Shown here one piece after another: positions 29,029-49,989 of a stretch of DNA of 50,736 bases; position 1 is the stretch's first letter, and every line of letters starts with the position of its first letter. A program made the translations under genes and the position numbers. The DNA is taken from assembly GCA_964474885.1 (NCBI GenBank), contig CAYYWO010000007.1, positions 1-50,736 on the forward strand, written 5' to 3'. This DNA is from Candidatus Hadarchaeota archaeon (GTDB taxonomy: Archaea > Hadarchaeota > Hadarchaeia > Hadarchaeales > JAWBSP01). The notes beneath the pieces are model-generated. The model searched no databases and was not told the origin of the DNA. It saw only the letters and a list, made by a program, of their open reading frames with translations.

Positions 29029-30454
29029 GGTGCAACCTCAGCAGCTCTCCTGTTTTTAGGTTTAGAACCGGGACGATGCCGGGGGTTGGCTCTATGCCGC
29101 GCTTTCTCATGTAGGAAGTCTTGCCTTGGAAAGGCCCAGAACAGAGCAGCCAGACCCCCTTGTATCGCTCCATCCCAGCGACATGTAGATGTCCGCAGTG
29201 GAAGACATCAGGTATTTCTTCGATGACCATGTAGTCCTCGGTGTAGGGGGCAACCGCGGTTTTGCCTCCATAGACAGGAGCTAGGTGGCGTTTCTTGAGC
29301 AGGAGCTTCATGAGCTCACAGGGGTTTTGAACGTTAACTTCCGATGAAAGGTCATCGAAGCTACGTCCATGGTACATCAGGATCCTAACCCCCTCGATTT
29401 CTAGAAGGGAAGGATTTCCCACAAGCACGCACCCCATGTCGTGGAGGGGCTTTGCAATTTCTTCCGGGATCGGCGGCTGGGGTTCCGCCATTCTGACAGC
29501 GTCGTGATTGCCTGGAGAGATTACAACCGTGATGTGCTCGGGGAGCTCAGAAAGAAGTTCGGCGGCTCTTTCGTACTGCTTGAACACATCAGCGATCTCG
29601 AGCTCTTTTTCCTGCTTCGGGTAAATGCCAACGCCATCGCAGATGTCACCAGCTATGAGCAAGTAGCTGACCTTTGGGGGAATATGCTTGTATTTTTCTT
29701 GGGTTTCGGTACCTTTGAGCCACTTCACGAACCTCTCAAAAACATGCTCTAGGAACATCTTGCTGCCTACATGCAGGTCCGAAATAAAGGCAACGTACAC
29801 CTCCTCCTCCGCCCGGTGTGGCGTTATTTTGGGAAATTCCGGCCAGAGGATCTTCTTGGTGATGAAAGAGATGTTTCCAACCTGTCGTTTGATGCCAACC
29901 AAGCCTATTACCTCGTCAGTCACAACCTCATGCACCTGTTCGTAGGACTCCCCCTTGTCTCTCAACACCCAAAATCTCTCTCGTCTCTCCAGATCCTCCA
30001 GCTCCAGGATGTAGTGCCCTTTCGGTGTAACTCTTTTTTCCGCGACCATTCCGATGATCCTGAACTCTTGCCCCTCTTCCAGGTACTTTAAACTCGAAAA
30101 TGGTATAGCCTGCGATGCCTCAGGCCTCATCCTTAAGAGGGACTTTGTTTTTTCGTAGCGACTTCGAAAGAGCTGCTGGAAGTCCTCCACCTCTCCTCCA
30201 CAGCTGGGATAGTCTTTCCCCTTCAAGATTACCATCTTGGGGGCTTTGATCTCCCTCTCCGGCTTCATTTTCGGGGGCCTCGCCGTCTCGAGTACTTGGG
30301 CTACCATTTCGCGTGTTATGACAGTTGCACCTTTGAGTTGCGTGAAGATCTTTTGGATATCTTCATCGGGTAACGTCTCCAGCAATTGAATGGCATCAGG
30401 GGTCAGAAAAGAACCAAGGTTCATCGCCTTTTCCACGAGCAGCTCGGCCTTCAT
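29021..30454 (-). CDS. polB: DNA polymerase D small subunit DP1 (proofreading exonuclease)
   Basis: OB fold plus SDLHVGS, AGD..DG.G.Y..Q, PGNHD, HGRS.DD, RHLAP and GHLH. Confidence 0.96.
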   Translation of the reverse strand: MKAELLVEKAMNLGSFLTPDAIQLLETLPDEDIQKIFTQLKGATVITREMVAQVLETARPPKMKPEREIKAPKMVILKGKDYPSCGGEVEDFQQLFRSRYEKTKSLLRMRPEASQAIPFSSLKYLEEGQEFRIIGMVAEKRVTPKGHYILELEDLERRERFWVLRDKGESYEQVHEVVTDEVIGLVGIKRQVGNISFITKKILWPEFPKITPHRAEEEVYVAFISDLHVGSKMFLEHVFERFVKWLKGTETQEKYKHIPPKVSYLLIAGDICDGVGIYPKQEKELEIADVFKQYERAAELLSELPEHITVVISPGNHDAVRMAEPQPPIPEEIAKPLHDMGCVLVGNPSLLEIEGVRILMYHGRSFDDLSSEVNVQNPCELMKLLLKKRHLAPVYGGKTAVAPYTEDYMVIEEIPDVFHCGHLHVAGMERYKGVWLLCSGPFQGKTSYMRKRGIEPTPGIVPVLNLKTGELLRLHLA

Positions 30455-31707
30455 GAGAAAAAGCTGCAGAGTTTGGAGTCAGGCTGCGGGAACTCTAACT
30501 TTCCAAGCTCCGGTAAGAGTGCTTTCTTTATGCCGGGGAACAGGAGGTCTCTTACCATCGTGCTCCTCCCCCCGCGCCCCCTGCTCACAACTTCAGTCGA
30601 AATGATCCCAAGCATGTCTAGTTCGTCCAAGTAGTTCTTCAGGGATCGGTGCCCAACGGGTGTTATCCCGTTTTTCTCGCACAGCCTCTGGTAATACTTG
30701 TAAATTTCGCCGAACGTCAGCCGACAACCGTTTTGCTTTAAGACAACCAGACAGAGGAGGACTATTTTTTGCTGAAGAGGCAAGGTAGCCAGGATCTCCT
30801 TCACGGCATTCTTCTGCAACCGCTTGTTGCCCTCCTGTACGTGTTCGACTTTCACGAGCACCTCGTTCCTTTCCTCGGCTATTTCCCCCGCGGTTCTCAG
30901 CAAATCTAGAGCCCTCCTCGCATCCCCGTGTTCCTGTGCCGCCAAGGCGGCGCAGAGCTTGATAGCTTCCTCGGTTACGACTCCCGGCTTGAAACTCAGC
31001 TTCACCCTCTCCTTCAGTATGTCCTGCAGCTGCTGGGCGTTATATGGCGGGAAGACGACCTGCGCCTCTCCCAGGCTGCTCTTAACCCTCGGATCCAGGA
31101 AATCGAGGAAGGTTGCATTGTTCGAGATTCCGACGACGCTGACCTTGGATTGAACCAGCTCCGCATTGAGTCGTGAAAGTTTGTATAGTAGGTTGTCCCC
31201 CTTGTCTGTTAACTTGTCGATTTCATCTAGGGCTATAATGACGAACTTTTGTTCCAGATCCACCACCTTCTTGAAGATGTCAAACAGGAGGTCTACTGGC
31301 CATCCGGTATGAGGGATCCGGCTCGGTAAGTTGTGTTTAGAAAATTCGTAGGAGCCCTTTCTGTTTCGGAACTCTTCGAGCAGGGAAGTTGTAACTCGGC
31401 TCAGCACCCTGTACTCAGTGTTCACATGCTGGCAGTTCACATAGACACCAACGACCGGGATGTGGTTGCGTTCTCTCTGCAACTCTCTCAATAAATAAAG
31501 CGTCACAGCCGTCTTTCCTGTCCCGGGCTTTCCGTAAATGAGGACATTTGAGGGAGTTTCTCCTCTAAGCGGAGCGACCAGAATCCTAGCGAGTTGCTCT
31601 ATCTGTTCTTCTCGGTGCAGGAGCTTGTCTGGGGTGTAAGAAGGGCGCAAGTAGTCCTTGTTTTGGAATATTCTCTGGTCCCGCAAGAATTTCTCAAAAA
31701 GCGCCAT
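30451..31707 (-). CDS. cdc6: Orc1/Cdc6 replication initiator
   Basis: Y.P..L.HRE.QI, GKPGTGKT, LDEIDKL, LDPRVKSSL, GDARRALDLL and C-terminal winged helix. Confidence 0.96.
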   Translation of the reverse strand: MALFEKFLRDQRIFQNKDYLRPSYTPDKLLHREEQIEQLARILVAPLRGETPSNVLIYGKPGTGKTAVTLYLLRELQRERNHIPVVGVYVNCQHVNTEYRVLSRVTTSLLEEFRNRKGSYEFSKHNLPSRIPHTGWPVDLLFDIFKKVVDLEQKFVIIALDEIDKLTDKGDNLLYKLSRLNAELVQSKVSVVGISNNATFLDFLDPRVKSSLGEAQVVFPPYNAQQLQDILKERVKLSFKPGVVTEEAIKLCAALAAQEHGDARRALDLLRTAGEIAEERNEVLVKVEHVQEGNKRLQKNAVKEILATLPLQQKIVLLCLVVLKQNGCRLTFGEIYKYYQRLCEKNGITPVGHRSLKNYLDELDMLGIISTEVVSRGRGGRSTMVRDLLFPGIKKALLPELGKLEFPQPDSKLCSFFS

Positions 31708-32122
31708 GGGAAATCCTCCTCCTGATTTCTTCCAACCAATTTCTCAGAACCCTCCTCACCTGGTAGAAGAGGTGTAATTCATCGGGTGTCATGTTGTCCG
31801 TCGTTTCAGGACTCCGCAGGACTTTGAATGCTCTCGTTTCGAAAAGCCCCAAGGCTTCATTTAAGAGTTTCCCTCTTTCCTCTCGGCTCAGACCAAGCAT
31901 CGATAGCCTCAAAGTGGGTATGAGATCCTCCCGGAGACGGAGAAGCTCCGCGCTTTTTTCCTCTTTGATGAGCAACCCCCTCACATCTGCGAGAGTGAGA
32001 GGCTCTGCTAGCCTAGCCTTCCCCTGCGCTATCAGCACGGCAGCCTCCCACTCGTCCACCTCTCTTTCCTCCTCCGCGGCCAGGACTTCGCCCTCCGCCT
32101 GTACGAGAATCCGGACTTTCAT
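31694..32122 (-). CDS. GINS subunit (Gins23/Psf2-like)
   Basis: N-terminal beta B-domain with W.A..L...G, helical A-domain and NMTPDE..F; sits between mcm and cdc6. Confidence 0.7.
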   Translation of the reverse strand: MKVRILVQAEGEVLAAEEEREVDEWEAAVLIAQGKARLAEPLTLADVRGLLIKEEKSAELLRLREDLIPTLRLSMLGLSREERGKLLNEALGLFETRAFKVLRSPETTDNMTPDELHLFYQVRRVLRNWLEEIRRRISHGAF

Positions 32123-34143
32123 GCTCTCACCAGCTTGTACTTTGGCATGACACCCTCTTTCCCGAACTCAAAAAGGAACCCGTGGTTCTTATCTTCTTCT
32201 ATCATCTTCTCAATCGATACCTTATCCAAGCCGATCTCCTGGGCTCTTGTCACGATTTCGTCGTGGGGGATCCCTTCCGGAAACTCCTTGTCCAATTTCT
32301 GAAGCAATTGGCGGAACCTGCTGATTCTATCCCTCTCTGGCTTAGTCTTCTGCGTGTATATCAAATCTATGTCGAACCTCCCGCTTTCCAAGTCGTACCC
32401 TATTTCTTGCAGGGTGAGCTTCAGAAGTTGTATTGCTCTGTTAACATCCTCTATCTGTACCTCCTCCGAGAGTCTGGCTCTGGCATTGGCTTTGGCCAGT
32501 CGTATGATGGTCTCGAGTTGTCGCGGAGTGACAGGAACGGGATTCCCAGGTTCGGCGTGCTTTCTCCACTCCACGTAAAACCGTGTTATTTCGTTGACAA
32601 CTTCCTTCGATTTGATCTGGGGGTGGATGTACTTTTTGGCATAGACGATTATCTTCCGCAACATGTCAGCTGGGATGGGTGCTCTCACCGGCTTTCCATG
32701 TTTCCCGTGGAGGGAGACCATGTGTTCCGAGATTTTTTGATCCTGCTGCGGATCCGGGGTGTCCTTAACCGCGAAGATCAGATCAAAGCGACTTATGAGC
32801 ACAGGGGAGATGTCTATCTGCTGGACTAGAGGGATGCTGGTGTCTATCCTTCCCGTTTTTGGATTCGCCGCAGCACACACAGATGTCCGCGTGTTCAGCG
32901 TGGCAACTATGCCACCTTTTGAGACGCTTATAGTCTGCTGCTCTAAGGACTCTAGGATGGCGTTTGCCTCTGTCTTATCCATTTTTTCGAACTCGTCTAT
33001 GCATGCTATCCCCCCATCAGCTAGGACAAGGGCACCAGCTTCAAGGGCCCAGGTTCCTGTAACCTCATTTTTTACAGCTGTGGCGGTCAGGCCAGCAGCG
33101 GTCGACTTCACCCCTGAAGTGTAGAGGCCCCTGGGGGCAACCTGTGCCACCCACCTGAGGAGAGCGGACTTCGCTTTCCCTGGATCACCGACCAGCAGTA
33201 TGTGGATGTCCCCCCTCACTTTGTGTCCGTCTTTCGTGACAACAGGGTCTGAGCCGAACAGCTGGAGGAGTATTCCCTCCTTGATGTGCTCGCACCCAAA
33301 GATTGCCGGTGCGATGGATTTTATCAGTTTCTCCCTCAGGTTGGGGTCCTTTGCCAGCTTCTTTATTTGCTGGATCTCGTGCTGGGTGAGCTCAATTTCT
33401 TCTACTCCCTTCTCGATTACCTCTAGGTGGTTGATGAAGAAGATCTTTCTGAAGGTTCTCGGGAATTTTTTCCCTCTTCCTTCAGGTATGGGCTTCATGT
33501 ACCCCGTCACGCGGACACGATTGCCGGGGACGGCCCTCTCAACCAAGTCATCTCTTACGATGCAGTCCAGCCTTCTGGGCATCCTGCCACTTCTCAGGTC
33601 CTCCGGTTTCTCTTGAATGACTAAAGCCTGCCAGTCCCTGAATTTCGATTTCTCCTCAACCAATTCGAATTCACGTGCTGTGCGTTTGCTGCATTCCGGA
33701 TTTAGGCACATGAGCGGCTTCTCGATGAACTCGCCTGTCTGCTCAACCTCTTGGAGCTCCCCGCACCACTTGCATCTGTAAACAGCAACGCAGATTTCAG
33801 GCCTGACGGGACTGGCTTGGGCTATTATCCCCTCGATTTGTATGAATTTTCCCAAGTGGGACTCTCTCAAATCCCTGATCGAAACGGTATTCTCATCCCC
33901 CAAGTTGCTTATTCTGAGTCTCATGGTGGATCCTACCAGAGAAGTCAGCTCTTCGTCAGCAGCTCTTAGGAACTCCTCCGGCTTGTCCAGCAGGAACTTG
34001 GCGAGCTCGATGTCGTACTCGAGCAGTTGCCGGAATTCGAGGGTGATGGAGCTCGATCCTTTATTGGCTGCGGTCTTTGCTAGCTTGCGTACGCTTGATT
34101 GGTGCAGGAAATCCGTCAGGAGCTCCCTCAGCCTCTCTTCCAT
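32119..34143 (-). CDS. mcm: MCM replicative helicase (no intein)
   Basis: Zn finger CKWCG...C..P.C, RGDIHILLVGDPGKAKS, AGLTA, IDEFEKM, AANP and SRFD arginine finger. Confidence 0.97.
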   Translation of the reverse strand: MEERLRELLTDFLHQSSVRKLAKTAANKGSSSITLEFRQLLEYDIELAKFLLDKPEEFLRAADEELTSLVGSTMRLRISNLGDENTVSIRDLRESHLGKFIQIEGIIAQASPVRPEICVAVYRCKWCGELQEVEQTGEFIEKPLMCLNPECSKRTAREFELVEEKSKFRDWQALVIQEKPEDLRSGRMPRRLDCIVRDDLVERAVPGNRVRVTGYMKPIPEGRGKKFPRTFRKIFFINHLEVIEKGVEEIELTQHEIQQIKKLAKDPNLREKLIKSIAPAIFGCEHIKEGILLQLFGSDPVVTKDGHKVRGDIHILLVGDPGKAKSALLRWVAQVAPRGLYTSGVKSTAAGLTATAVKNEVTGTWALEAGALVLADGGIACIDEFEKMDKTEANAILESLEQQTISVSKGGIVATLNTRTSVCAAANPKTGRIDTSIPLVQQIDISPVLISRFDLIFAVKDTPDPQQDQKISEHMVSLHGKHGKPVRAPIPADMLRKIIVYAKKYIHPQIKSKEVVNEITRFYVEWRKHAEPGNPVPVTPRQLETIIRLAKANARARLSEEVQIEDVNRAIQLLKLTLQEIGYDLESGRFDIDLIYTQKTKPERDRISRFRQLLQKLDKEFPEGIPHDEIVTRAQEIGLDKVSIEKMIEEDKNHGFLFEFGKEGVMPKYKLVRA

Positions 34144-37007: not shown

Positions 37008-37580
37008 TCAGCTCACACGAAAGAGCCTCCTCAGTACAGGAGCCAGTTCTCGGGCAAATCTGAAGATGTAATTGGGGTGAGGAAGAAAGAAGATCTCTGT
37101 CCTCTTCGCTTCAAGCTTCGTCGGGTACCTAACAGATCTTGGTTGTTCGAGATTGAATATCTCGCAGATCGAGGCCGAGGCCATTCTGCCCATGGCGACT
37201 ATTCTCTTGGGCTGGAGAAGCGAGATCTCCGCTCTCAGGTGCTTGACGCACTTTTTTCTCATTTCTTTTAGGGAATCTCTGTTTGGGGGCCTGCACTTGA
37301 CGGCTGCGGTGATGAAAACGCCCTGCTTCCTAAGAGCCTCCAAAACTCGCTTGTCTCCCTTTATGCCCAAAATGAACTTGAGCGACAGCCGTAGCCGGTC
37401 GAAGGTGTCCAGGTTGTATAGCGAGCCTGCTTTTCGACCCGGAGGGGGAGATTCCCCGATCGCTAAGGTATGGGTTTTTTCCGGAAGCCAAGCATACACC
37501 CGATGGCTTATGAAGGGCTTGTCCACGAAGCGGCAGAGATGGCAAGTGGCAATTCTGCGCCTTAATGTATTCATTATCAT
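37008..37580 (-). CDS. Uracil-DNA glycosylase superfamily protein (Fe-S type)
   Basis: CHLC, IGESPP, AVKCRPP...C and PHP. Start moved to 37580 because the longer ORF runs through tRNA-Thr. Confidence 0.78.
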   Translation of the reverse strand: MIMNTLRRRIATCHLCRFVDKPFISHRVYAWLPEKTHTLAIGESPPPGRKAGSLYNLDTFDRLRLSLKFILGIKGDKRVLEALRKQGVFITAAVKCRPPNRDSLKEMRKKCVKHLRAEISLLQPKRIVAMGRMASASICEIFNLEQPRSVRYPTKLEAKRTEIFFLPHPNYIFRFARELAPVLRRLFRVS

Positions 37581-37597
37581 TTTCCGCAAGAATGGAT

Positions 37598-37672
37598 GCC
37601 CCGGTAGCTCAGCCTGGTTAGAGCGCACGCTTGGTAAGCGTGAGGTCGCGGGTTCAACTCCCGCCCGGGGCT
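37598..37672 (+). tRNA. tRNA-Thr(GGU)
   Basis: GCCCCGG/CCGGGGC acceptor, CACGC-TTGGTAA-GCGTG anticodon arm, GCGGG-TTCAACT-CCCGC T arm. Confidence 0.96.
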
Positions 37673-37679
37673 TCAAGAC

Positions 37680-40694: not shown

Positions 40695-42224
40695 ATGTCC
40701 AGCTACCAGCCAATTGTCCAATGGATTGAAAACCTGCCACAGGGGCTGGGTGCATGGATGAAGGAAAGGTTGAGAGATGAAGATGACTACAGCAGGTGGC
40801 TGGAGGATGGCAGGGATTTCATAGATGAGGAAAAGATTTGGCGCTTGATAAAAGAGAACTCAGATCCCACCCGCAGTCAAGTCAGAGCAATCATCGACAA
40901 GGCCCTTTCCTCCAAGGAATGTTTAGAACCTGAGGAAACCGCCAAGTTGCTGAACATAAAGGATGAGCAGCTGTGGAAGGAAGTCTACGAGGCAGCAGGG
41001 GAGGTAAAAAAGGAAGTCTATGACAACAGAATCGTTACGTTTGCACCATTGTACTGTAGCGACTACTGCGTGAACAACTGTCTTTACTGTGCCTTCCGGA
41101 GAGAAAACCAGGTGGTCAGGAAGAGGCTCTCGATCGAGGAAGTAGAAAAAGAAGCCAGAGCTTTGGCGGCGGCAGGACACAAACGTTTGATAACCTCATA
41201 CGGTGAGCACCCGCTCTCTGATGCCGGCTATATTGCTGAAACCTTGAAGGCGATCTATCGGGTGAAGGTCAAAACGAGGTCGGGATGGGGAGAGATCCGG
41301 AGGGTCAACGTCAATGCAGCTCCAATGACGGTGGAGGAGCTCAAGATGCTGAAGCAGATAGGTATCGGTACTTTCCAGGTTTTCCAGGAAACCTACCACC
41401 ACGAAACCTACCGAGCGGTACACCCTGCTGACACCATCAAGGGCAGTTATCACTGGAGGCTGTATTGCATGCACAGGGCACTTGAGGCAGGGGTAGATGA
41501 TGTGGGGATCGGTGTCCTCCTTGGTCTCTACGACTGGAGATTCGAGGTGATGGGGCTCTTGTTCCACTCAAGGGAGCTAGAAGAAAAGTTTGGGGTGGGA
41601 CCACACACCATCTCCTTCCCAAGACTCCGCCCCGCCCTGAACACACCCTTCGTGCAACGGGCCGAATATAAGGTGTCTGACTCGGACTTCAAGAAGTTCA
41701 TAGCGGTTGTCAGGCTTTCGGTTCCCTATACAGGTATGATATTAACGGCTAGGGAGCCTGAACACGTGAGGAGAGAGGTTCTCCCCCTAGGGATCACCCA
41801 AACGGACTTCGGTTCCAGAATCGGGATAGGCTCCTACACGAGTGGCAATAGTGATCAGTTGCCCGATCGCCAGCAGTTCCTGCTGGGGGACACGAGGGAC
41901 TTGGAGGAAGGGATAAGGTGGCTGGCGAGCCAGGGATACATCGTGTCCTTCTGCACTGCTGGGTATAGGTGCGGAAGGACGGGTCAGCACATAATGACAC
42001 TCCTGAAGAGCGGGAAGGAGAAGGTGTTTTGCAAGCTGAATGCTGTGCTGACGTACAAGGAATACTTGGAGGACTTTGCGGGCGAAGAAACGAGGAGACT
42101 GGGCGAGAAAGTCATCGAGAAGGAAATAGAGGAGATCCGGGAACTCGTTCCGCCCGAGGTCTTCAAAAGATTTATGGAGTATTTAAACCGCATAAGCAAG
42201 GGTGAGCGGGACCTCTACTTCTGA
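40695..42224 (+). CDS. hydG: [FeFe]-hydrogenase maturase HydG
   Basis: FAPLY.S.YCVNNCLYC radical-SAM motif, FQETY, GPHTISFPR (dangler His) and auxiliary-cluster motif CTAGYRC-x19-C; C-terminal GERDLYF. Confidence 0.95.
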   Translation: MSSYQPIVQWIENLPQGLGAWMKERLRDEDDYSRWLEDGRDFIDEEKIWRLIKENSDPTRSQVRAIIDKALSSKECLEPEETAKLLNIKDEQLWKEVYEAAGEVKKEVYDNRIVTFAPLYCSDYCVNNCLYCAFRRENQVVRKRLSIEEVEKEARALAAAGHKRLITSYGEHPLSDAGYIAETLKAIYRVKVKTRSGWGEIRRVNVNAAPMTVEELKMLKQIGIGTFQVFQETYHHETYRAVHPADTIKGSYHWRLYCMHRALEAGVDDVGIGVLLGLYDWRFEVMGLLFHSRELEEKFGVGPHTISFPRLRPALNTPFVQRAEYKVSDSDFKKFIAVVRLSVPYTGMILTAREPEHVRREVLPLGITQTDFGSRIGIGSYTSGNSDQLPDRQQFLLGDTRDLEEGIRWLASQGYIVSFCTAGYRCGRTGQHIMTLLKSGKEKVFCKLNAVLTYKEYLEDFAGEETRRLGEKVIEKEIEEIRELVPPEVFKRFMEYLNRISKGERDLYF

Positions 42225-42489
42225 GGATCTCAGGAGATATCTGGAGGATCTCGCTCGCGTCGTAGCGGTGAAGTTCAGGGTCAAGGTTTGGTTCGCGGAG
42301 ATATTGGGCAGGAGGTGGTCGTACATCGCGGGTGAAAGGGAGGATACCTTCCTCCCTCCGGTCAAGGTTCAGCTGACGGAGAAGATGGGTGTAGTGCTGA
42401 TTGGTGTACACTCCCACGGGCAGGTGGAGGAGGTAAAGAATTTCATCCTCTCCCAGCTCAGAACCGCAGGTTTTAAAGATGCCAGCTAA
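42202..42489 (+). CDS. Uncharacterised 95-aa protein inside the hyd operon
   Basis: Overlaps the hydG end and stops 9 bp before hydC; contains EILGRRWSYIAG; no Cys. Confidence 0.7.
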   Translation: MSGTSTSEDLRRYLEDLARVVAVKFRVKVWFAEILGRRWSYIAGEREDTFLPPVKVQLTEKMGVVLIGVHSHGQVEEVKNFILSQLRTAGFKDAS

Positions 42490-42498
42490 ACACCGTTT

Positions 42499-42963
42499 AT
42501 GGAGTCGGAACTGGAAGATCAGATAAGCAGGATGGTTGAACAAATGGGCAGGCAGGCCTTGCTTCCCTGCCTGCATCTCATCCAAGAGAAGCTGGGATGC
42601 GTCACGCCGGAAGCGGCAACCCTCGTCGCGAAAAAGCTGGGCCTGTCAAGGGGAGAGGTTTTCAGCGTGGCATCCTTTTACGGGATGTTTAGCAGGGAGA
42701 GGGAGGGAAAATTTGTCATTCGCGTTTGTGTCTCCCTCCCCTGCTATCTGAAGGGGGCGAGGGAGATACTCCAGTACCTGCAGGGAGAACTCGGGGTCAA
42801 ACCGGGTCAGACCACGCCAGACGGGCTTTTCACTCTCAAGGAGACCTCATGTTTGGGCTTCTGTGACGGGGCCCCTGCCGTCATGGTGAACGACAAAACG
42901 TATGGCAGGGTGACTGTCGACAAAATGAAGGAAATCCTGCAGCAGTGCAGGGAGAAGGCATGA
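42499..42963 (+). CDS. hydC: [FeFe]-hydrogenase gamma subunit (NuoE-like [2Fe-2S])
   Basis: VASFY, CVSLPC...CLGFC..AP; ATGA overlap with hydB. Confidence 0.92.
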   Translation: MESELEDQISRMVEQMGRQALLPCLHLIQEKLGCVTPEAATLVAKKLGLSRGEVFSVASFYGMFSREREGKFVIRVCVSLPCYLKGAREILQYLQGELGVKPGQTTPDGLFTLKETSCLGFCDGAPAVMVNDKTYGRVTVDKMKEILQQCREKA

Positions 42964-44225
42964 AGATCCTCCTCAAACGTATAGAGAAGAAGGATTACAG
43001 GGGAACTCTAGAAGAATACCTGCAGGAGGGGGGTTACGAGGCACTGAGGAAGACGCTAGAGATGGAGCCGTCCGGAGTAATTGCGGAGGTCAAGCGATCT
43101 GGACTCGTGGGAAGAGGGGGTGCGGGCTTCCCCACCGGCTTGAAGTGGGAGTTAACTGCGAAGGTTCCAGACTCCCCCAAATACGTGGTCTGCAATGCCG
43201 ATGAGGGCGAGCCAGGGACCTTCAAAGATCGGATCATAATGGAGCGAGATCCCCACCTGCTCTTGGAGGGGATGATGATCTGCGGTTACGCGATTGGGGC
43301 TAGACAGGGCTACATTTATGTCCGGGGTGAGTACACCGAGAGCTACAGGCGGCTGGAAGCGGCGATCCAGGAAGCCCGGGAGAGGCACCTCTTGGGTGAG
43401 AAGATCCAGGGAACGGATTTCTCGTTCGACATTTACCTCTACAAAGGAGCTGGGGCTTACGTGTGCGGCGAGGAGACTGCACTCCTAGATTCACTGGAAG
43501 GTAAGAGGGGAGAGGCAAGGTTGAGGCCGCCATACCCGGCTACTTCGGGGTTCAGGGGCAAGCCTACCGTGGTGAACAATGTGGAAACTCTCTCGTGCAT
43601 CCCAGCTATAATTCTTAACGGAGGGGAGTGGTACTCCAAGATAGGCTCGGAGGGCAGTCCCGGAACTAAACTCTACTGTCTTTCAGGGGATGTCAGAAAT
43701 CCGGGCGTCTATGAACTACCCACGGACGTAACGCTCGAAGAACTTGTGAGCGAGTATGGCAGGGGGGTAGAAGGAGGGGCGAAGGCAGCCTTAACCGGGG
43801 GAATCTCGGGCGGGCTCCTAACTCCCGAACAATTTAAGGTAACTCTTGACTACAAGAGCATGCTCAAAGCGGGAACTGGCTTGGGTTCAGGCGCGATCAT
43901 CATGTTGAATCAGAGGAGGTGCATGGTGGATGTAGCGCTCAGGTGTCTCGAGTTCTTTGAGCATGAGTCGTGTGGGAAGTGTGCCCCCTGCAGGGAGGGG
44001 ACGAAGAGGGCAAGGGAATTGCTTCAGAAGATACGCAGAGGAAACGGGGACTCTGCCAGCCTGGAACTCCTGCTGGAGCTGCAAAGGGTGATGTACGACA
44101 CCTGTATCTGTGGTCTCGGTCAGAGCGCCCTCAATGTCACCAAAGCCTGCATCGAGAGGTTCAAGGGAGAGTTCGAAGAGCACCTCAGGGGGAGGTGCGT
44201 GGTAGGGGTGTGCGGACATGACTGA
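42960..44225 (+). CDS. hydB: [FeFe]-hydrogenase beta subunit (NuoF-like FMN/NADH diaphorase), short form
   Basis: GRGGAGFPTG.KW, NADEGEPGTFKDR, GAGAYVCGEETAL, NNVET, ESCGKCAPCREG...CGLG. Start reset to the ATG at 42960 (421 aa). Confidence 0.93.
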   Translation: MKILLKRIEKKDYRGTLEEYLQEGGYEALRKTLEMEPSGVIAEVKRSGLVGRGGAGFPTGLKWELTAKVPDSPKYVVCNADEGEPGTFKDRIIMERDPHLLLEGMMICGYAIGARQGYIYVRGEYTESYRRLEAAIQEARERHLLGEKIQGTDFSFDIYLYKGAGAYVCGEETALLDSLEGKRGEARLRPPYPATSGFRGKPTVVNNVETLSCIPAIILNGGEWYSKIGSEGSPGTKLYCLSGDVRNPGVYELPTDVTLEELVSEYGRGVEGGAKAALTGGISGGLLTPEQFKVTLDYKSMLKAGTGLGSGAIIMLNQRRCMVDVALRCLEFFEHESCGKCAPCREGTKRARELLQKIRRGNGDSASLELLLELQRVMYDTCICGLGQSALNVTKACIERFKGEFEEHLRGRCVVGVCGHD

Positions 44226-45945
44226 GCTGGTCAAGTTAACAATAGACGGTTATGAGGTTGAGGTACCAGCGGGCACCACCATCCTGGAGGCCGCAAAGAA
44301 GCTGAACATAAAGATCCCCACCCTCTGTTACAGGGAGGGGCTCGAACCTTACGGTGCTTGCCGGGTGTGCGTTGTGGAAATCGAGGGACGACCGAGACTG
44401 GAGCCTGCATGTGCTACACCGGTGGCACCTGGGATGAAGGTGAAGACGAGGTCTGCTAGAGTAAGGCGTGCGAGGCGCATGATCCTGGAACTCCTCCTGA
44501 GCAATGGGCATCAAGATTGCACCACATGTGAGAAGGCAGAAGACTGTGAGCTGAGGCAACTAGCGTATGAGCTTGGGGTGAGGGAGATAAGGTTCGAGGG
44601 TGAGAGGTACAACTACCCGATAGACACCTCCTCACCTTCAATAGTTTTTGATCCGAACCGCTGCATTCTCTGCGGCCGTTGCGTGAGGACATGCCGGGAG
44701 GTCCAGTCGGTTGAAGCCATCAAGTTGACCGACAGAGGGAGGAACACACGGGTGATGACGTTCTTCGATTGGGGCCTGGGAAATGTTGAGTGCACGGCCT
44801 GCGGCCAGTGTGTTCTAGCCTGTCCAACAGGTGCCTTAAGGGAGAGGAACGATATTGAGGAGGTTTGGAAGGCCCTGGAGGATCCTGACAAATTTGTGGT
44901 GGTACAGACGGCACCGGCGATCAGAGCGGCACTGGGTGAGGAGTTCAATCTGCCTCCAGGCACCTCTGTCACTGGAAAGATGGCGGCGGCTCTCAGGAGG
45001 CTGGGTTTCGACCGGGTCTTCGACACACAGTTCGGAGCGGACTTAACCATCGTGGAGGAGGCCCACGAGTTGATAGAGAGAATTCAGAAGGGAGGGAAGC
45101 TCCCCATGACCACCTCCTGCTCACCGGCGTGGGTGAAGTACTTTGAGCACTTTTTCCCAGAAGTTCTCGAGCACATGTCGACATGCAAATCCCCCCAGCA
45201 GATGTTTGGGGCGGTTGCGAAGACCTACTATGCTGAAAAATTGGGGATAAAGCCCGAAGACATGGTGGTGGTTTCGATCATGCCGTGCACGGCGAAGAAG
45301 TTCGAGGCAAAGCGTCCCGAGATGAAGGCCTCGGGTGTTTACGATGTTGACGTGGTGCTGACCACAAGGGAGTTCGCAAGGATGGTGAAAGAGGCCGGCA
45401 TTGATTTCGCCAGCCTTCCAGAGGAGGAGTTCGACGAGCCTCTGGGGATCTCCACTGGAGCGGCAGTCATCTTCGGCGTGACGGGCGGAGTTATGGAGGC
45501 TGCTCTGCGAACGGCGTACGAGATAGTCACGGGAAAGCCTTTGGAGAAGGTCGAGTTCAAGCAGGTTAGGGGTTTTGAGGGGATAAGGACTGCGTCAATC
45601 GACTTCAACGGCACTCAGGTGCGTGTTGCAGTTGCCCATGGGTTGGCCAACGCCCGGGTGCTGATGGAGGAGGTGAGGGACGGCAGATCCCCCTATCACT
45701 TCATCGAGGTCATGGCATGCCCGGGAGGCTGCTTGGGAGGGGGTGGGCAGCCCATTCCAACCGACATGGAGATCAGGAAGAAGAGGGCGGCCTGCCTGTA
45801 CTCGGAGGATGAGAGGAAGGTGGTGAGGAAGTCGCACGAAAATCCCGCCATAAAGAAACTCTATGAGGAGTACTTAGGAAGGCCGGGAAGTGAGAAGGCA
45901 CATCACCTCTTGCACACCACTTACACCTCCCGGGGAAGATACTGA
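44218..45945 (+). CDS. hydA: [FeFe]-hydrogenase catalytic subunit (group A, M3-type architecture)
   Basis: [2Fe-2S] domain, HQDCTTC-x5-C, two CxxCxxCxxxC; H-cluster motifs TSCSPAW, MPCTAKKFE and EVMACPGGCLGGGGQP; fused small-subunit tail SHENP...LLHT. Confidence 0.97.
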   Translation: MTELVKLTIDGYEVEVPAGTTILEAAKKLNIKIPTLCYREGLEPYGACRVCVVEIEGRPRLEPACATPVAPGMKVKTRSARVRRARRMILELLLSNGHQDCTTCEKAEDCELRQLAYELGVREIRFEGERYNYPIDTSSPSIVFDPNRCILCGRCVRTCREVQSVEAIKLTDRGRNTRVMTFFDWGLGNVECTACGQCVLACPTGALRERNDIEEVWKALEDPDKFVVVQTAPAIRAALGEEFNLPPGTSVTGKMAAALRRLGFDRVFDTQFGADLTIVEEAHELIERIQKGGKLPMTTSCSPAWVKYFEHFFPEVLEHMSTCKSPQQMFGAVAKTYYAEKLGIKPEDMVVVSIMPCTAKKFEAKRPEMKASGVYDVDVVLTTREFARMVKEAGIDFASLPEEEFDEPLGISTGAAVIFGVTGGVMEAALRTAYEIVTGKPLEKVEFKQVRGFEGIRTASIDFNGTQVRVAVAHGLANARVLMEEVRDGRSPYHFIEVMACPGGCLGGGGQPIPTDMEIRKKRAACLYSEDERKVVRKSHENPAIKKLYEEYLGRPGSEKAHHLLHTTYTSRGRY

Positions 45946-45948
45946 GTT

Positions 45949-46944
45949 TTGCCCTTTTTACACCACATCCTTCGCGTCCTGAGAAAACAGGATCTGAGCA
46001 AACTGAGCAAAGTCGCTAGTTGGGTCAGGGATAGGCACTGTGGCAGGGTCGTCTTCATCAGGGGGCTGCTGGAGTTCTCGAACTACTGTTGTCGCAGCTG
46101 TTTGTACTGCGGCCTCCGCAGGGAGAACAGGGACCTCCCCCGCTACCGGATGTCACCCGAGGAGATCTTGGAAGCGGTTGACAGGATGGCCGAGTGCGGG
46201 GTGAAAACAGTGGTGCTCCAGTCGGGGGATGACTTAGGGTACCCGGTGGAAGAACTGGCTCGAACCATCCGGCAGATCAAGGAGAGGTATCCTGACATGG
46301 CGGTTACTCTTTCCATCGGGGAGAGGTCAATAGAGGACTATAGAGCTTTAAGACAAGCGGGGGCGGACAGGTTCCTGCTAAAACACGAGACGGCCAACCC
46401 CGAGCTCTACCACGAAATGCATCCAGGGCAGTCCTTCATGCACAGGCTGAGGCTCCTGTTATACCTGCGGAGGTTAGGGTACCAGATTGGGGCAGGCTGC
46501 ATAGTTGGCCTGCCTGGCCAGACCTTAAAAGATTTGGCCGCTGATGTCAGACTCATGTACCTACTCGACGTGGACATGGCGGGGATTGGACCTTTCGTGC
46601 CCCAAAAGAACACCCCTCTCGGCAGCCACCCGCCTGGGAGCAAGGAACTCACCCTTTCCGTCCTGGCCTTGACCCGGATACTCACCAAAACGGTTCTGCT
46701 ACCCGCGACCACAGCCCTTGCTACCCTCGATCCCGTTGAGGGACATGTGGCGGGATTGAGGGCAGGATGTAACGTTATCATGGTCAATTTTACCCCCGAG
46801 AGGTACCGCCAGCACTACAGGATTTATGACAACAAGCTGAGGGTCACTTTGAGCAGGGCGGAAGAGGCCGTGAAGGAAGCAGGGCTAAGTATTTTATGGG
46901 ATAGGGGGGATACCTTCAGATGCTCCAAGCACCGAGGGGCTTAA
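45949..46944 (+). CDS. hydE: [FeFe]-hydrogenase maturase HydE
   Basis: RGLLEFSNYC..SCLYC, VLQSG, LKHET, GIGPF.P, PATTAL, G.NV.M.N.TP and YRIYDNK; lies between hydA and hydF. Confidence 0.92.
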   Translation: MPFLHHILRVLRKQDLSKLSKVASWVRDRHCGRVVFIRGLLEFSNYCCRSCLYCGLRRENRDLPRYRMSPEEILEAVDRMAECGVKTVVLQSGDDLGYPVEELARTIRQIKERYPDMAVTLSIGERSIEDYRALRQAGADRFLLKHETANPELYHEMHPGQSFMHRLRLLLYLRRLGYQIGAGCIVGLPGQTLKDLAADVRLMYLLDVDMAGIGPFVPQKNTPLGSHPPGSKELTLSVLALTRILTKTVLLPATTALATLDPVEGHVAGLRAGCNVIMVNFTPERYRQHYRIYDNKLRVTLSRAEEAVKEAGLSILWDRGDTFRCSKHRGA

Positions 46945-48137
46945 GATTGCACATAGCGATTCTGGGGAGGAGGAATGTGGGGAAGTCATCAATCCTTAAC
47001 GCTATTACCCAGCAACAGGTGGCCATAGTCTCAAGTAAGCCCGGAACCACAACGGATCCCGTTGAAAAGCCCATGGAACTTCCTCCCATCGGTCCGGTTA
47101 TGTTCATCGACACAGCTGGTCTGGACGACGTGGGATCCCTGGGCAAGCTCAGGCTTGAGAAAACCCAGAAAGTCCTGGAAAGGGCAGATTTGGTCCTGCT
47201 CGTGACAGAGGCAAATGTCTGGGGGGAGTACGAGGAGAAGGTGTTGAGAGAAGTCAGGAAGAGGGGCATTCCCCTGCTGGTTCTGCTCAACAAGGTCGAC
47301 ATAGTCAAACCTTCCCCCGAAATAAGGCAGAAACTCCAGAAGGAGGGCGTACCGTTCGTGGAAACCTGTGCGGTCGGGAATGGTGGAGAAGTGGCGGCCA
47401 AGATCAAGCAGGCCATGCTGGGTCTCCTGCCGGAGGATTTCGTCAACCCGCCACCGATCATCTCAGATATCGTTAAACCCGGTGATCTCGTGACCTTCGT
47501 CATGCCGATTGATTTGGAGGCACCGAAAGGGAGACTCAAACTTCCACCCCAGCAGACCATGAGGGAGCTTCTCGATCAGCGTGAGCCAATGTGCTTGGTG
47601 GTCAACGAGAAGACCCTGAAGAAGGGCTTGGAGACCTCGAGTGTTAAGCCGAGGCTGGTGGTAACAGATACCTGTGTACTTAAAGAAGTGGTTGATCAAG
47701 TTCCCCCCGAAATTCCCGTGACAAGCTTCTCGATTCTCCTAGCGAAGGCCAAAGGAGACTTGAGGGAGTTCGTCGAGGGGATCAAGGTGTTGGACAGACT
47801 GAAACCCGGGGATAAGGTACTGATCGCTGAAGCATGCACGCACCACCCGATAGGGGATGACATGGCTAGGGTCAGAATTCCCAGACTTATAAACCAGAAG
47901 GTGGGTGGACCAGTTCAGTTTGATGTTTACTCTGGGCACGACTTCCCAGAGAATCTGGAAGAGTACAAGTTAGTGATCCACTGTGGGGCATGCATGATAA
48001 ATCGCAGGGAGCTGCTCTCGAGGATCCTCAAGTGCAGGGAGAAGGGCGTACCGATAACCAACTACAGCATGGTGGTCGCATACCTGCACGGTTGCTTGGA
48101 CAGGGTTCTCCAACCCCTCCGTCAGCAGCTGGACTAG
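46920..48137 (+). CDS. hydF: [FeFe]-hydrogenase maturase GTPase HydF
   Basis: GRRNVGKSS, GTTTDPV, DTAG, NKVD, APKGRL and the CxH...HCGAC cluster motif (EACTHH / IHCGACM). Confidence 0.96.
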   Translation: MLQAPRGLRLHIAILGRRNVGKSSILNAITQQQVAIVSSKPGTTTDPVEKPMELPPIGPVMFIDTAGLDDVGSLGKLRLEKTQKVLERADLVLLVTEANVWGEYEEKVLREVRKRGIPLLVLLNKVDIVKPSPEIRQKLQKEGVPFVETCAVGNGGEVAAKIKQAMLGLLPEDFVNPPPIISDIVKPGDLVTFVMPIDLEAPKGRLKLPPQQTMRELLDQREPMCLVVNEKTLKKGLETSSVKPRLVVTDTCVLKEVVDQVPPEIPVTSFSILLAKAKGDLREFVEGIKVLDRLKPGDKVLIAEACTHHPIGDDMARVRIPRLINQKVGGPVQFDVYSGHDFPENLEEYKLVIHCGACMINRRELLSRILKCREKGVPITNYSMVVAYLHGCLDRVLQPLRQQLD

Positions 48138-49306
48138 AGTTGTCTCAACGAGACGTCTAGCAGTTTCCGGAAGGAGGCTAAGAATTCGTCAGGCAGCCTC
48201 GTCAGACCGACCTCCACGAATCCCTTGACGATCAGGGAAGTAGCTTCCTTTTCGGTCAGCCCCCTCGACATGAGGTACTCCACCTGCTCTCGCGCTATCT
48301 TGCCTATTGCTGCTTCGTGGGTCAGCTCTGCGCCCCTCTTCTTGGCTACGAGCTCGGGGATGGCGTGCACGGAGCAATCGGGCGAGAGCAGGAGCCCCAT
48401 GCATTCTACGTGTCCCCTGCAATCCTCGCAGTCCCCAACGATGCAGCTCCTAGACCAGACCTTCGCCCTGTCCTTAGCCACGACTCTTGTCAGGACTTCT
48501 CCCCGGCTCTCTTTACCTGAGAAGATTATCCTTCCCCCTAGGTCGAAGAGGGAATCCTCCTGTGCCAAGATGAGGTTGTTGAAGGTGACACTGGATCCGT
48601 CTCCCTCGCAGAAGGCCGTGGGATACATCTGAATGCTCTTAACGGGGAGCGCGCAGATGTAGTTGCTAACGAGGGAAGCACCCTCCTCCAACCTCGCGGC
48701 GGCCCTCGGTCTCGCATCGAACCCGGCCCCCCAATAATGGATCATGGTGAAGTTGAGTTTCGCATTTTTCTTGAGGTAAAACTCAGTCACCCCCACGTGC
48801 AGCCCCCGTTGTAGTCCCCGGTAGGCGGCACAGCCCGTCACTATCGTGGCCTCGGAGTCGGGCTCCATGACTATGATGTTGTGGACGTTTTGGTTCAGAC
48901 CCTCAGTCCCTATGAAGAAGCATGCCTGAAGGGGGAGGGGGACTTTCACCCCCTCCTTCACCCTTATGAATACTCCCCTGTCCTCGTTCAGGTACGTCCA
49001 AGCAGTATACTTGTCGGTTGCGGGATTGACCAGCTTCCAATAGTACGGTGCTAGATCGTGTCTCTTCCGCGCCTCCCTCATGTCCACTATCTCCACGGAA
49101 TCCCTCAGGGCTTCCCTGATGACCCGGCGGACCACGGAGTAGTCCACCTGCAAGTAGGTACCGGCCCTGCCCTCCTCTTGGATTCTCATGGGTGCCTCTC
49201 CGGCGGGTGTGCGGGAGCTCTCCCTGCCGTATGCCTCTAGGTCTATGTCCGGGCCGAACTGGGCGGGCTTTTGAAGGGCTTTTATGACTTCCTCCTTTTC
49301 GGGCAT
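48134..49306 (-). CDS. sufB: SufB/D-family Fe-S scaffold, SmsB type
   Basis: Beta-helix SufBD domain; GHVEC.GL, A.PEL, LTHEAAIGKI and YLMSRG. Start set to the ATG at 49306. Confidence 0.9.
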   Translation of the reverse strand: MPEKEEVIKALQKPAQFGPDIDLEAYGRESSRTPAGEAPMRIQEEGRAGTYLQVDYSVVRRVIREALRDSVEIVDMREARKRHDLAPYYWKLVNPATDKYTAWTYLNEDRGVFIRVKEGVKVPLPLQACFFIGTEGLNQNVHNIIVMEPDSEATIVTGCAAYRGLQRGLHVGVTEFYLKKNAKLNFTMIHYWGAGFDARPRAAARLEEGASLVSNYICALPVKSIQMYPTAFCEGDGSSVTFNNLILAQEDSLFDLGGRIIFSGKESRGEVLTRVVAKDRAKVWSRSCIVGDCEDCRGHVECMGLLLSPDCSVHAIPELVAKKRGAELTHEAAIGKIAREQVEYLMSRGLTEKEATSLIVKGFVEVGLTRLPDEFLASFRKLLDVSLRQL

Positions 49307-49989
49307 GATCGGCACCACTGGTACCCCTTCTCCATGATGGTCGAAACGATTCGTTCGGGATCACCCGAACAAACGATTTCCCCATCCATCATGACGTGGG
49401 CGACCTTTGCACGGACGTACCTCAGGATGTAACCCAGATGGGTAACGATGAGGCAGGAGCACTTTCCGGTCAGCCTGTCGATCACCCTTCCCAGAACCCT
49501 CAGGCTCTCCACATCCACGCCCGAGTCCGGCTCGTCCAGCAGGGCTAGTTTGGGCTTCTGAGCTAGAACCTGGAGGAGCTCCGACTTCTTGAGCTCCCCT
49601 CCGGAGAAACCCAAGTTCAGCTCACGCTCTAGAAATTCAAGGGGCAATCCCACCTCCGCTAGGAGCCTCTGGGTCTCTCCACCAACCAGCTCGAGCAGCT
49701 TGCCGAATTTGACTCCTCTCAGCTCGGGCGGGTTCTGAAAGGCGACGGCCATGCCCAGCCTCGCACGCTCATGTATCGGCAGCTGGGTTATGTCCCTGCC
49801 CTCGAAGAGTATCCTCCCCCCAACAATCTTGTAGGGGGAGAAACCTAGGATCGTCTTTATCAGACTCGTCTTCCCACAGCCATTGGGCCCAAGGAGGACA
49901 TGGGTTTCCCCCTCCCCTATCTCAAGGCAGACATCCCTTAGAACGATTTTATTCTCGATTTTGACGGTCAGGTGCTCTACCTTCAGCAT
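49282..49989 (-). CDS. sufC: SufC-family ABC ATPase, SmsC type
   Basis: GPNGCGKT, FQNP, GFSGGE, LDEPDSG.D; C-terminal C...CxxC (IVCSG...WCRSC) typical of SmsC. Confidence 0.92.
   Translation of the reverse strand: MLKVEHLTVKIENKIVLRDVCLEIGEGETHVLLGPNGCGKTSLIKTILGFSPYKIVGGRILFEGRDITQLPIHERARLGMAVAFQNPPELRGVKFGKLLELVGGETQRLLAEVGLPLEFLERELNLGFSGGELKKSELLQVLAQKPKLALLDEPDSGVDVESLRVLGRVIDRLTGKCSCLIVTHLGYILRYVRAKVAHVMMDGEIVCSGDPERIVSTIMEKGYQWCRSCPKRRKS

Follow-up and report, generated by a model that had tools for sequence, protein, structure and literature searches.

The hydCBA genes described here probably encode a ferredoxin-independent NAD(H):H2 oxidoreductase (NAD(H), nicotinamide adenine dinucleotide) of the kind represented by Hyd1ABC of Syntrophomonas wolfei, and it is the flavin subunit HydB that carries this reading. 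The genes lie in a stretch of 50,736 bases of contig CAYYWO010000007.1 (assembly GCA_964474885.1, Candidatus Hadarchaeota archaeon); this full stretch is called the window, and all coordinates refer to it. The enzyme is a further case of a known non-bifurcating type and not a new kind. The interest of the locus comes mainly from its archaeal, Hadarchaeota-like host, from the complete set of maturases adjoining the structural genes, and from a hinge-loop tail retained at the C-terminus of HydB, three points that the original prediction did not mention. The features of HydB that are used below are as follows.

42960-44225, forward strand: hydB, NuoF-like subunit binding flavin mononucleotide (FMN) and NAD(H), 421 residues, as assigned by Pfam, NCBIfam and alignment
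43209-43232, forward strand: EPGTFKDR, HydB residues 84-91; T87 and K89 correspond to Thermotoga maritima HydB positions 232 and 234 and have the non-bifurcating states there
43446-43475, forward strand: GAGAYVCGEE, HydB residues 163-172; at the FMN site, Y167 has the state of the non-bifurcating enzymes
43797-43814, forward strand: GGISGG, HydB residues 280-285, SLBB region; not GGPSG
43971-44111, forward strand: cysteines C338, C341, C344 and C384 of a single [4Fe-4S] site (N3/B1-type), within NADH_4Fe-4S
44193-44219, forward strand: tail RCVVGVCGH, HydB residues 412-420 (C413, C418 and H420, with H408 upstream), from the alignment with Acetobacterium woodii HydB

The interval 42960-44225 translates without interruption into 421 residues and a stop. 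Its ATG at 42960 is preceded by a GGGAGAAGG stretch, and an alternative GTG start at 42945 would add five residues to HydB. Complex1_51K was detected by Pfam at residues 44-215 (E 2.9e-49) and NADH_4Fe-4S at residues 324-408 (E 1e-27), together with an SLBB segment at residues 239-267 that scores 24.8 bits against a cut-off of 27 and is thus below the gathering score; the same scan found neither 2Fe-2S_thioredx nor Fer4 in HydB. The top NCBIfam models are NuoF models, of which NF010120 is over its cut-off (411.5 bits, cut-off 389) and nuoF_fam under it (519.1 bits, cut-off 558.65). Cysteines 338, 341, 344 and 384 line up with CGKCxPC and CGLGQ of the homologues and are, by homology, the putative ligands of the [4Fe-4S] cluster. 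In the alignment 16 residues of HydB stand before the conserved core and 3 after residue 418; the aligned HydB of A. woodii and Acetomicrobium mobile are longer by about 130 residues at the N-terminus and by about 60 at the C-terminus. Pfam and the alignment flanks thus agree with the original prediction, made from the letters of the DNA, that this is a 421-residue HydB without the N-terminal [2Fe-2S] and the C-terminal 2x[4Fe-4S] domains.

The flavin pocket gives the more specific evidence. In the structure-chain alignment the HydB proteins of A. woodii and A. mobile have PGAFMDR, GAGAFVCGEE and GGPSGG at the places equivalent to the three motifs listed above, with T87 and K89 standing opposite the A and the M of PGAFMDR in A. 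woodii. NuoF of Escherichia coli, which belongs to the non-bifurcating complex I, has GAGRYICGEE where HydB has GAGAYVCGEE; it has the same threonine, lysine and tyrosine states as HydB and is without GGPSG. The GEE acidic pair following the FMN-site tyrosine is also as in E. coli NuoF, and this pair may have a role in NADH preference. Losey et al. (2020) propose four features, numbered after T. maritima HydB, to distinguish the two types of beta subunit: in the bifurcating type, position 232 is A or E, position 234 is M, the FMN site carries F, and positions 427-431 read GGPSG; the non-bifurcating NADH-dependent type has T or S (232), K, S or A (234), Y, and no GGPSG. The tables of that study list predicted non-bifurcating trimeric HydB of 402-434 residues, all with threonine, lysine and tyrosine (T/K/Y hereafter, as A/M/F denotes alanine, methionine and phenylalanine at the same three places), and with an SLBB motif GG[TIVASN][SA][GST] such as GGTSG, GGIST, GGISS, GGASG or GGSSG; the entries for Syntrophomonas species have 407 residues and GGTSG. 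With 421 residues, T87, K89, Y167 and GGISG, the window HydB falls within every one of these beta-subunit sequence criteria. All three motifs were located as the original prediction had quoted them, and its statement that these motifs and the absence of the domains separate NADH-dependent from bifurcating HydB is in accordance with Losey et al. (2020). Judged by its flavin-pocket motifs, the window HydB is clearly of the predicted non-bifurcating type.

The absent domains have been related to bifurcation in several studies. Furlan 2022 reports the C-terminal HydB domain (clusters B3 and B4) for all characterised bifurcating [FeFe] hydrogenases and for none of the non-bifurcating ones, Schut 2022 describes non-bifurcating BfuB homologues as being without clusters B2-B5 and without ferredoxin interaction, and in Katsyv 2023 a C-terminal deletion of HydB served to validate the ferredoxin branch. 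In the window HydB, neither clusters B2-B5 nor the A-F-M/F/GGPSG signature of the Bfu family was found. Domain loss alone is no proof of non-bifurcation, however, because HoxEFUYH of Synechocystis bifurcates, according to a 2026 preprint, despite having no C-terminal ferredoxin domain. As described there, HoxEFUYH keeps the AFM, F and GGPSG motifs as well as the N-terminal [2Fe-2S] in HoxF, and its low-potential branch runs via the [2Fe-2S] clusters of HoxE and of the HoxF N-terminus. Flavin-pocket motifs, rather than domain loss, look like the better predictor of bifurcation.

The homologues of HydB show the same combination of characters. About 5.8 billion clustered proteins were searched, 7,999 candidates were scored and the best 120 were used, and the following counts of database proteins refer to these 120. 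The top non-self match is 64% identical to HydB. The 71 closest matches are all 409-443 residues long; 67 of them are T/K/Y, three A/K/Y and one I/K/Y, and none has GGPSG. They are followed by fusions of NuoE and NuoF of 520-560 residues, which are 52-57% identical to HydB. Among the 71, those with an organism name are without exception (9 of 9) from bacterial metagenome-assembled genomes (MAGs), assigned to Omnitrophota, Elusimicrobiota, Planctomycetes, Deltaproteobacteria or simply 'bacterium'. Scanning species-representative genomes with HydB gave 80 loci, all bacterial and with at most 56% identity, and at five of these an H-cluster HydA adjoins the HydB-like gene. The resulting alignment has 201 rows including the window, made up of 120 database proteins and 81 HydB-like open reading frames (ORFs) from the loci. 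A C-terminal extension of at least 50 residues is present in 47 of the 55 A/M/F rows, in none of the 136 T/K/Y rows and in none of the 10 others; variants of GGPSG such as GGPLG occur in six A/M/F rows. The HydB signature is a homology-based feature, and chance is therefore not the issue.

Some of the surveyed loci and proteins combine these characters differently. HoxF-like ORFs of 539-551 residues at loci L004, L006, L007, L009, L015, L076 and L080 have A/M/F and GGPSG and no C-terminal ferredoxin domain, which fits the 2026 preprint on the bifurcating cyanobacterial HoxEFUYH. NuoE-NuoF fusions of the Caldatribacterium type with mixed T/K/Y and GGPSG are found as P0075, P0081, P0090, P0093, P0097 and P0098, and further as P0101, P0102, P0105, P0111 and P0113; the GGPSG criterion alone would therefore misclassify those fusions. 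Locus L001 (1877-9007, from a Cloacimonadales MAG) contains a hydC, a 615-residue A/M/F HydB, a second hydC, a 520-residue T/K/Y HydB with GGAAG, and a single HydA. In length and states the 520-residue HydB equals the Ca. Cloacimonas entry in Table S2 of Losey 2020, and in this locus the gene for a single catalytic subunit is preceded by adjacent genes for flavin subunits of the predicted bifurcating and the predicted non-bifurcating type.

For the phylogenetic tree the rows were thinned to less than 80% identity and those with more than 80 core gaps were dropped, which left 84 of the 201 rows; with E. coli NuoF added, the tree has 85 rows and 399 columns. Bootstrap convergence was incomplete (correlation 0.958). 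The window HydB is located within a clade of 24 rows (UFBoot 97, SH-aLRT 95) and within a clade of 30 rows (100/99), both made up of short T/K/Y proteins apart from one A/K/Y row. All 24 A/M/F rows are found elsewhere, on one side of a branch with support 82/34 that is present in 76% of the bootstrap trees. The window HydB is outside this A/M/F (Bfu-type) clade, and the NuoE-NuoF fusion proteins group next to the clade, apart from the window HydB.

HydB is encoded together with an H-cluster HydA and a NuoE-like HydC. Six co-directional genes follow each other in the order hydG-hydC-hydB-hydA-hydE-hydF, with hydB as the third, and the structural genes form a block of 7.4 kb together with the flanking genes for all three maturases. 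The neighbours of hydB and the first motif of HydA are listed here.

40695-42224, forward strand: hydG, radical-SAM H-cluster maturase, 509 residues; TIGR03955 rSAM_HydG 456.5 bits (cut-off 312.15), Pfam Radical_SAM and BATS
42499-42963, forward strand: hydC, NuoE-like thioredoxin-fold [2Fe-2S] subunit, 154 residues; 2Fe-2S_thioredx E 2.4e-48
44218-45945, forward strand: hydA, [FeFe]-hydrogenase catalytic subunit, 575 residues; NCBIfam NF040763 and Pfam
45112-45132, forward strand: TSCSPAW, HydA residues 299-305, first H-cluster motif
45949-46944, forward strand: hydE, radical-SAM H-cluster maturase, 331 residues; TIGR03956 339.6 bits (cut-off 254.6)
46920-48137, forward strand: hydF, H-cluster maturation GTPase/scaffold, 405 residues; TIGR03918 509.8 bits (cut-off 325.55), Pfam HydF_dimer and HydF_tetramer

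The stop of hydC overlaps the start of hydB by four bases as ATGA, and the end of hydB overlaps the ATG of hydA by eight. HydC is recognised by NCBIfam nuoE_fam (146.6 bits, cut-off 142.4), has cysteines 77, 82, 118 and 122, and has HydC of Thermoanaerobacter kivui (119.4 bits) and NuoE of Aquifex (117.4 bits) as its top structure-solved relatives. HydA scores 929.8 bits with NF040763 (cut-off 765), a model called 'NADH-dependent [FeFe] hydrogenase, group A6' in the naming of NCBI, which is group A3 in the scheme of Greening. With Pfam Fe_hyd_lg_C, Fe_hyd_SSU, Fer2_4 and NADH-G_4Fe-4S_3, its layout comprises a [2Fe-2S], a His-ligated [4Fe-4S], 2x[4Fe-4S], the H-cluster domain and the small-subunit domain, which is the full M3-type accessory set. 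The motifs TSCSPAW, MPCTAKKFE and EVMACPGGCLGGGGQP are present, which we take to be the H-cluster motifs L1-L3. The first motif reads TSCSPGW in HydA1 of A. woodii, an active enzyme, and TSCCPSW in HydA1 of T. kivui; CpI-type enzymes have TSCCPxW at this place.

The possibility that HydB is the NuoF of a respiratory complex I was rejected, since its neighbours are hydC, hydA and the maturases and no nuo membrane-arm genes were found within the window. The gap of 275 bases between hydG and hydC contains an ORF of 95 codons with a GTG start (42202-42489, forward strand), which overlaps the end of hydG by 23 bases. It was considered as a spare Fe-S subunit and discarded, as it matches no Pfam family and lacks cysteines; the ORF may represent a small gene or a non-coding spacer with an internal promoter of the operon.

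From these components the following working of the enzyme can be proposed. The products of hydC, hydB and hydA would form a trimeric [FeFe] hydrogenase, in which HydB would bind FMN and NAD(H), as suggested by homology with complex I and by the model of S. wolfei Hyd1ABC. Electrons would move in one-electron steps from the single [4Fe-4S] cluster of HydB through the iron-sulfur chain of HydA to the H-cluster, the [2Fe-2S] cluster of HydC being off-path or accessory, and the H-cluster would be built by HydG, HydE and HydF, encoded on both sides of the structural genes. Considering that the Fe-S domains are missing and that the flavin pocket is of the NuoF type, we infer that there would be no low-potential ferredoxin branch and thus no bifurcation. 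The NAD+/NADH couple would be equilibrated directly with H2, and the reaction could run either way: NADH could be vented as H2 at low H2 pressure, or H2 could be taken up to form NADH.

The closest counterparts are Hyd1ABC of S. wolfei, described in Losey et al. 2017, and the trimers predicted in Tables S1 and S3 of Losey 2020, which have the H-cluster HydA, the NuoF-like HydB and the NuoE-like HydC in common with the window. In both, HydB has about 400-430 residues, FMN and NADH sites, one [4Fe-4S], T/K/Y, and a GGxSG in which x is not P (GGTSG in the 407-residue Syntrophomonas proteins, GGISG here). Unlike S. wolfei, the host of the window is an archaeon and not a Firmicute, and the three maturase genes adjoin the structural genes; the comparison is based on the published description, on length and on motifs, and the window HydB has a C-x4-C-x-H tail. 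HydAB of Syntrophus aciditrophicus, for which Losey et al. (2020) report ferredoxin-independent NADH:H2 activity, and the HydB proteins that are NuoE-NuoF fusions are similar in the T/K/Y pocket and in having no C-terminal ferredoxin domain, whereas the gamma subunit is described as fused to the N-terminus of beta in that type and hydC is a separate gene in the window. A third ferredoxin-independent NADH-dependent system, in which an [FeFe] hydrogenase and a plain NuoEF make H2 from NADH, was characterised from Caecomyces churrovis in a 2026 paper, according to which the fungal proteins arose separately.

The bifurcating HydABC of T. maritima, A. woodii and T. kivui (Bfu family; PDB 7P5H, 7Q4V and 8A6T) share the three-subunit plan with the window. 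HydA has the TSCSP[AG]W form of L1 in common with A. woodii, and the HydB cores align end to end. In contrast, the bifurcating HydB are 599-630 residues long and have the N-terminal [2Fe-2S], the C-terminal 2x[4Fe-4S] and PGAFMDR/GAGAFVCGEE/GGPSGG, none of which is present in the window HydB. The NuoE-NuoF pair of complex I (E. coli, Aquifex aeolicus, Thermus thermophilus) has the domain set and the T/K/Y states of the window, and E. coli NuoF is 44.6% identical to the window HydB; its partners, however, are NuoG and the membrane subunits, whereas in the window HydA is encoded in an overlapping operon.

The C-terminus of HydB, EFEEH408LRGRC413VVGVC418GH420D, is aligned with AHIRDKKCPAGVCKH of A. 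woodii HydB (residues ~527-540, of which KKCPAGVCKH is 531-540). According to Katsyv 2023, the loop 530-542 is the link between the four-helix bundle and the C-terminal ferredoxin domain, and the conserved Cys and His of this loop bind Zn2+, and Furlan 2022 describes the Zn site as three Cys and one His acting as a hinge. By this alignment the window HydB would terminate exactly where the bifurcating HydB start their ferredoxin domain. Of the 71 closest homologues, 58 have the C-x4-C pair, as do the fusion proteins; the pair is lost in a subgroup of 409-411 residues, in the 520-residue HydB of L001 and in E. coli NuoF. The C-x4-C-x-H tail may be left over from the Zn hinge that carries the ferredoxin domain of the bifurcating enzymes, or may have preceded this hinge, and in either case the clade would be informative on the gain or loss of bifurcation.

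On both sides of the cluster (1-40661 and 48134-49989) the window has archaeal gene content, including the following replication genes.

11833-12594: PCNA
24839-28258: PolD DP2
29021-30454: PolD DP1
30451-31707: Cdc6/Orc1
32119-34143: MCM

Further archaeal genes in the window encode GatE, a diphthamide synthase, Nre, an exosome Csl4-like protein and endonuclease dU. PolD DP2 is 65% identical to a protein of a Candidatus Hadarchaeales archaeon, and 14 of its 20 organism-named matches, including the ten best, are from Hadarchaeota or Hadesarchaea. At a GC content of about 52%, AGR codons make up 59-92% of the Arg codons in the window. The amino acid fraction IVYWREL is 0.446 for the Hyd proteins and 0.445 for the other proteins of the window, and a regression reported by Zeldovich and colleagues in 2007 converts this composition into about 82 °C. 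Both the IVYWREL fraction and the AGR codon share suggest that the host is a thermophile or hyperthermophile. From gene content and composition, the host of the cluster is predicted to be a thermophile-like archaeon with Hadarchaeota affinity.

Several observations weigh against ferredoxin independence and have to be set beside the evidence for it. The similarity scores of the HydB core do not discriminate between the bifurcating and the NuoF type (446 bits with A. woodii HydB, 410 with T. maritima HydB and 409.8 with Aquifex NuoF), and HydA scores far higher with HydA1 from two bifurcating enzymes, those of T. kivui (725.6 bits) and A. woodii (704.4 bits), than with the monomeric CpI (~520 bits). 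Eight of the 55 A/M/F rows are without the C-terminal domain, these being HoxF-like proteins of 539-551 residues encoded beside HoxU-like genes, and GGPSG is leaky, as it is found in 13 of the 136 T/K/Y rows, mostly in Caldatribacterium-type fusions. Forcing the window into one group with 25 A/M/F and TMF rows costs 82.6 log-likelihood units, but the rejection by the approximately unbiased test is weak, being marginal (p-AU 0.032) and concerning a group that was named after the tree had been seen. The tree is anchored by E. coli NuoF and by context-labelled loci; S. wolfei Hyd1B, S. aciditrophicus HydB and T. maritima HydB were left out, and because of this the clade of the window contains no characterised member. 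Ferredoxin independence and NADH specificity rest on sequence rules, these rules were built on few characterised enzymes (S. wolfei, S. aciditrophicus and C. churrovis), and the view is limited to 50.7 kb of the genome. On these grounds one may ask whether the complex still bifurcates or confurcates in a non-canonical way, with a low-potential branch via the [2Fe-2S] of HydC or via a ferredoxin-like partner encoded outside the window. HoxEFUYH, which bifurcates without the C-terminal 2x[4Fe-4S] and has the HoxE cluster in its low-potential branch (2026 preprint), is a precedent for this, HydC with its four conserved cysteines is present, HydA is nearest to the HydA1 of bifurcating enzymes, and the C-x4-C-x-H tail aligned with the Zn-hinge loop is a possible vestige. 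Unlike in Hox, however, the flavin-pocket states of HydB are all non-bifurcating (T87, K89, Y167, no GGPSG), and the window HydB is without the N-terminal domain whose [2Fe-2S] is kept by HoxF; in addition, HydB stands outside the A/M/F clade. A separately encoded subunit restoring the missing Fe-S domains had been named in the original prediction as the finding that would speak against it. In a six-frame scan of all 50,736 bases two CxxCxxCxxxC motifs were detected, both within HydA, and no such ferredoxin-type motif outside HydA was found in any frame of the 50.7-kb window; therefore nothing within the window restores these domains, and the prediction stands on this point as far as the window reaches. 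Non-canonical bifurcation or confurcation is accordingly considered improbable, and ferredoxin-independent exchange between NAD(H) and H2 is preferred.

Two further questions concern the setting of the enzyme and its use. On the one hand, the hyd cluster could be bacterial DNA that was mis-assembled or mis-binned onto an archaeal contig, the archaeal setting then being an artefact. This would agree with the bacterial origin of all nine organism-named close HydB relatives and of all 80 loci of the genome collection, and the tetranucleotide correlation between the cluster and the rest of the window (0.872) is close to the low end of the control segments (0.863-0.948). The archaeal genes, however, are present on both flanks: upstream are PCNA, PolD, Cdc6 and MCM, and directly downstream of hydF, overlapping it by four bases, is a SufD-family gene whose organism-named relatives are all archaeal (best 52% identity). 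The six hyd genes also conform to the archaeal housekeeping genes in the GC content of third codon positions (0.66-0.70 against 0.53-0.76), in the AGR share of Arg codons (0.69-0.89 against 0.59-0.92) and in the ATA share of Ile codons, which is inside the housekeeping range, and the IVYWREL fractions are equal. No relative is above 64%, so the cluster is not a fragment of a sequenced bacterium. Since flanks, codon usage and IVYWREL agree, a chimeric contig is very improbable; the hyd cluster was most likely acquired from bacteria and looks like an old, well-adapted acquisition. On the other hand, the original prediction had suggested a syntrophic, H2-evolving lifestyle that needs a hydrogenotrophic partner. 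Enzymes of this type are indeed used by S. wolfei and S. aciditrophicus, and Losey et al. (2020) measured H2 formation from NADH only up to 2.2-40.2 Pa at NADH/NAD+ ratios of 1-5. The same study lists the signature in many non-syntrophs, among them Dehalococcoides, Halothermothrix, Petrotoga, Selenomonas and Ignavibacterium, and states that the enzyme cannot serve as the sole indicator of syntrophy, which leaves this suggestion weak. In the rest of the window there is nothing bearing on fatty-acid or aromatic oxidation, and a reversible enzyme would equally permit the formation of NADH from H2. The composition of the proteins suggests growth near 80 °C, and the H2 ceiling for making H2 from NADH is less strict at higher temperature. 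That the enzyme marks a syntrophic lifestyle is for these reasons unlikely, and a non-bifurcating enzyme open to both directions remains the preferred description.

The significance of the locus depends on what is known of [FeFe] hydrogenases in archaea. Greening et al. (2024, Cell) report them from 130 archaeal genomes of nine phyla, with acquisition inferred on several occasions; group A3 HydABC, taken there as bifurcating or confurcating, is reported from DPANN phyla, Thermoplasmatota E2 and Lokiarchaeia. The string 'Hadarchae' does not occur in the main text of that paper, and in its Table S3 at least 32 of the 39 occurrences of Hadarchaeota are marked 'Non-[FeFe] encoding', with false maturase hits. 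A full-text literature search for Hadarchaeia, Hadarchaeota or Hadesarchaea together with FeFe, in which neither subscription papers nor supplements on bioRxiv were covered, turned up no report of such an enzyme in this phylum. The archaeal group A3 systems resemble the window in that HydA, HydB and HydC are encoded in an archaeal genome. They differ in maturation: the full HydEFG set is reported for 5 of the 130 genomes, with an alternative maturation route proposed for the rest, whereas in the window all three genes are beside the structural genes. Table S2 of Greening et al. (2024) contains two DPANN HydB with PGTFKDR beside HydA, one of 407 residues from Micrarchaeota and one of 371 residues from QMZS01, both in genomes listed there without HydEFG; short archaeal HydB of the T/K type are therefore already public, although they are not singled out where they are listed.

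The evidence tips, by a modest amount, towards a thermophilic archaeon of Hadarchaeota affinity that has a complete, self-sufficient module of bacterial type, consisting of HydCBA and HydG, HydE and HydF, with a ferredoxin-independent flavin subunit of the NAD(H) type. If this is true, it would be the first [FeFe] hydrogenase of the phylum Hadarchaeota and among the very few archaeal cases with canonical maturation machinery, and it would extend these enzymes to a Hadarchaeota-like lineage for which at least 32 of the 39 occurrences in Table S3 of Greening et al. (2024) are marked as lacking them. The NADH pool of the host would then be wired straight to H2 without ferredoxin, either for the disposal of NADH in the heat or for H2-driven reduction of NAD+. 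HydABC operons are routinely labelled 'electron-bifurcating', as is done for group A3 in Greening et al. (2024). The locus argues for deciding on this label by HydB, and the predicted energy metabolism changes with the decision, as a non-bifurcating enzyme needs no reduced ferredoxin and can make H2 from NADH only where the H2 pressure is low or conditions are favourable in another way. An assay of a member of the short T/K/Y clade of the window would test the rules of Losey beyond the enzymes of syntrophs, and the locus is a natural candidate for the expression of a thermostable, self-maturing NADH-linked hydrogenase.

One minor observation concerns the annotation of the upstream part of the window. 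An ORF of 222 codons of the UDG family (37008-37676, reverse strand) has a TTG start inside a gene for tRNA-Thr(GGT) (37598-37672, forward strand), and its true start is probably further downstream.

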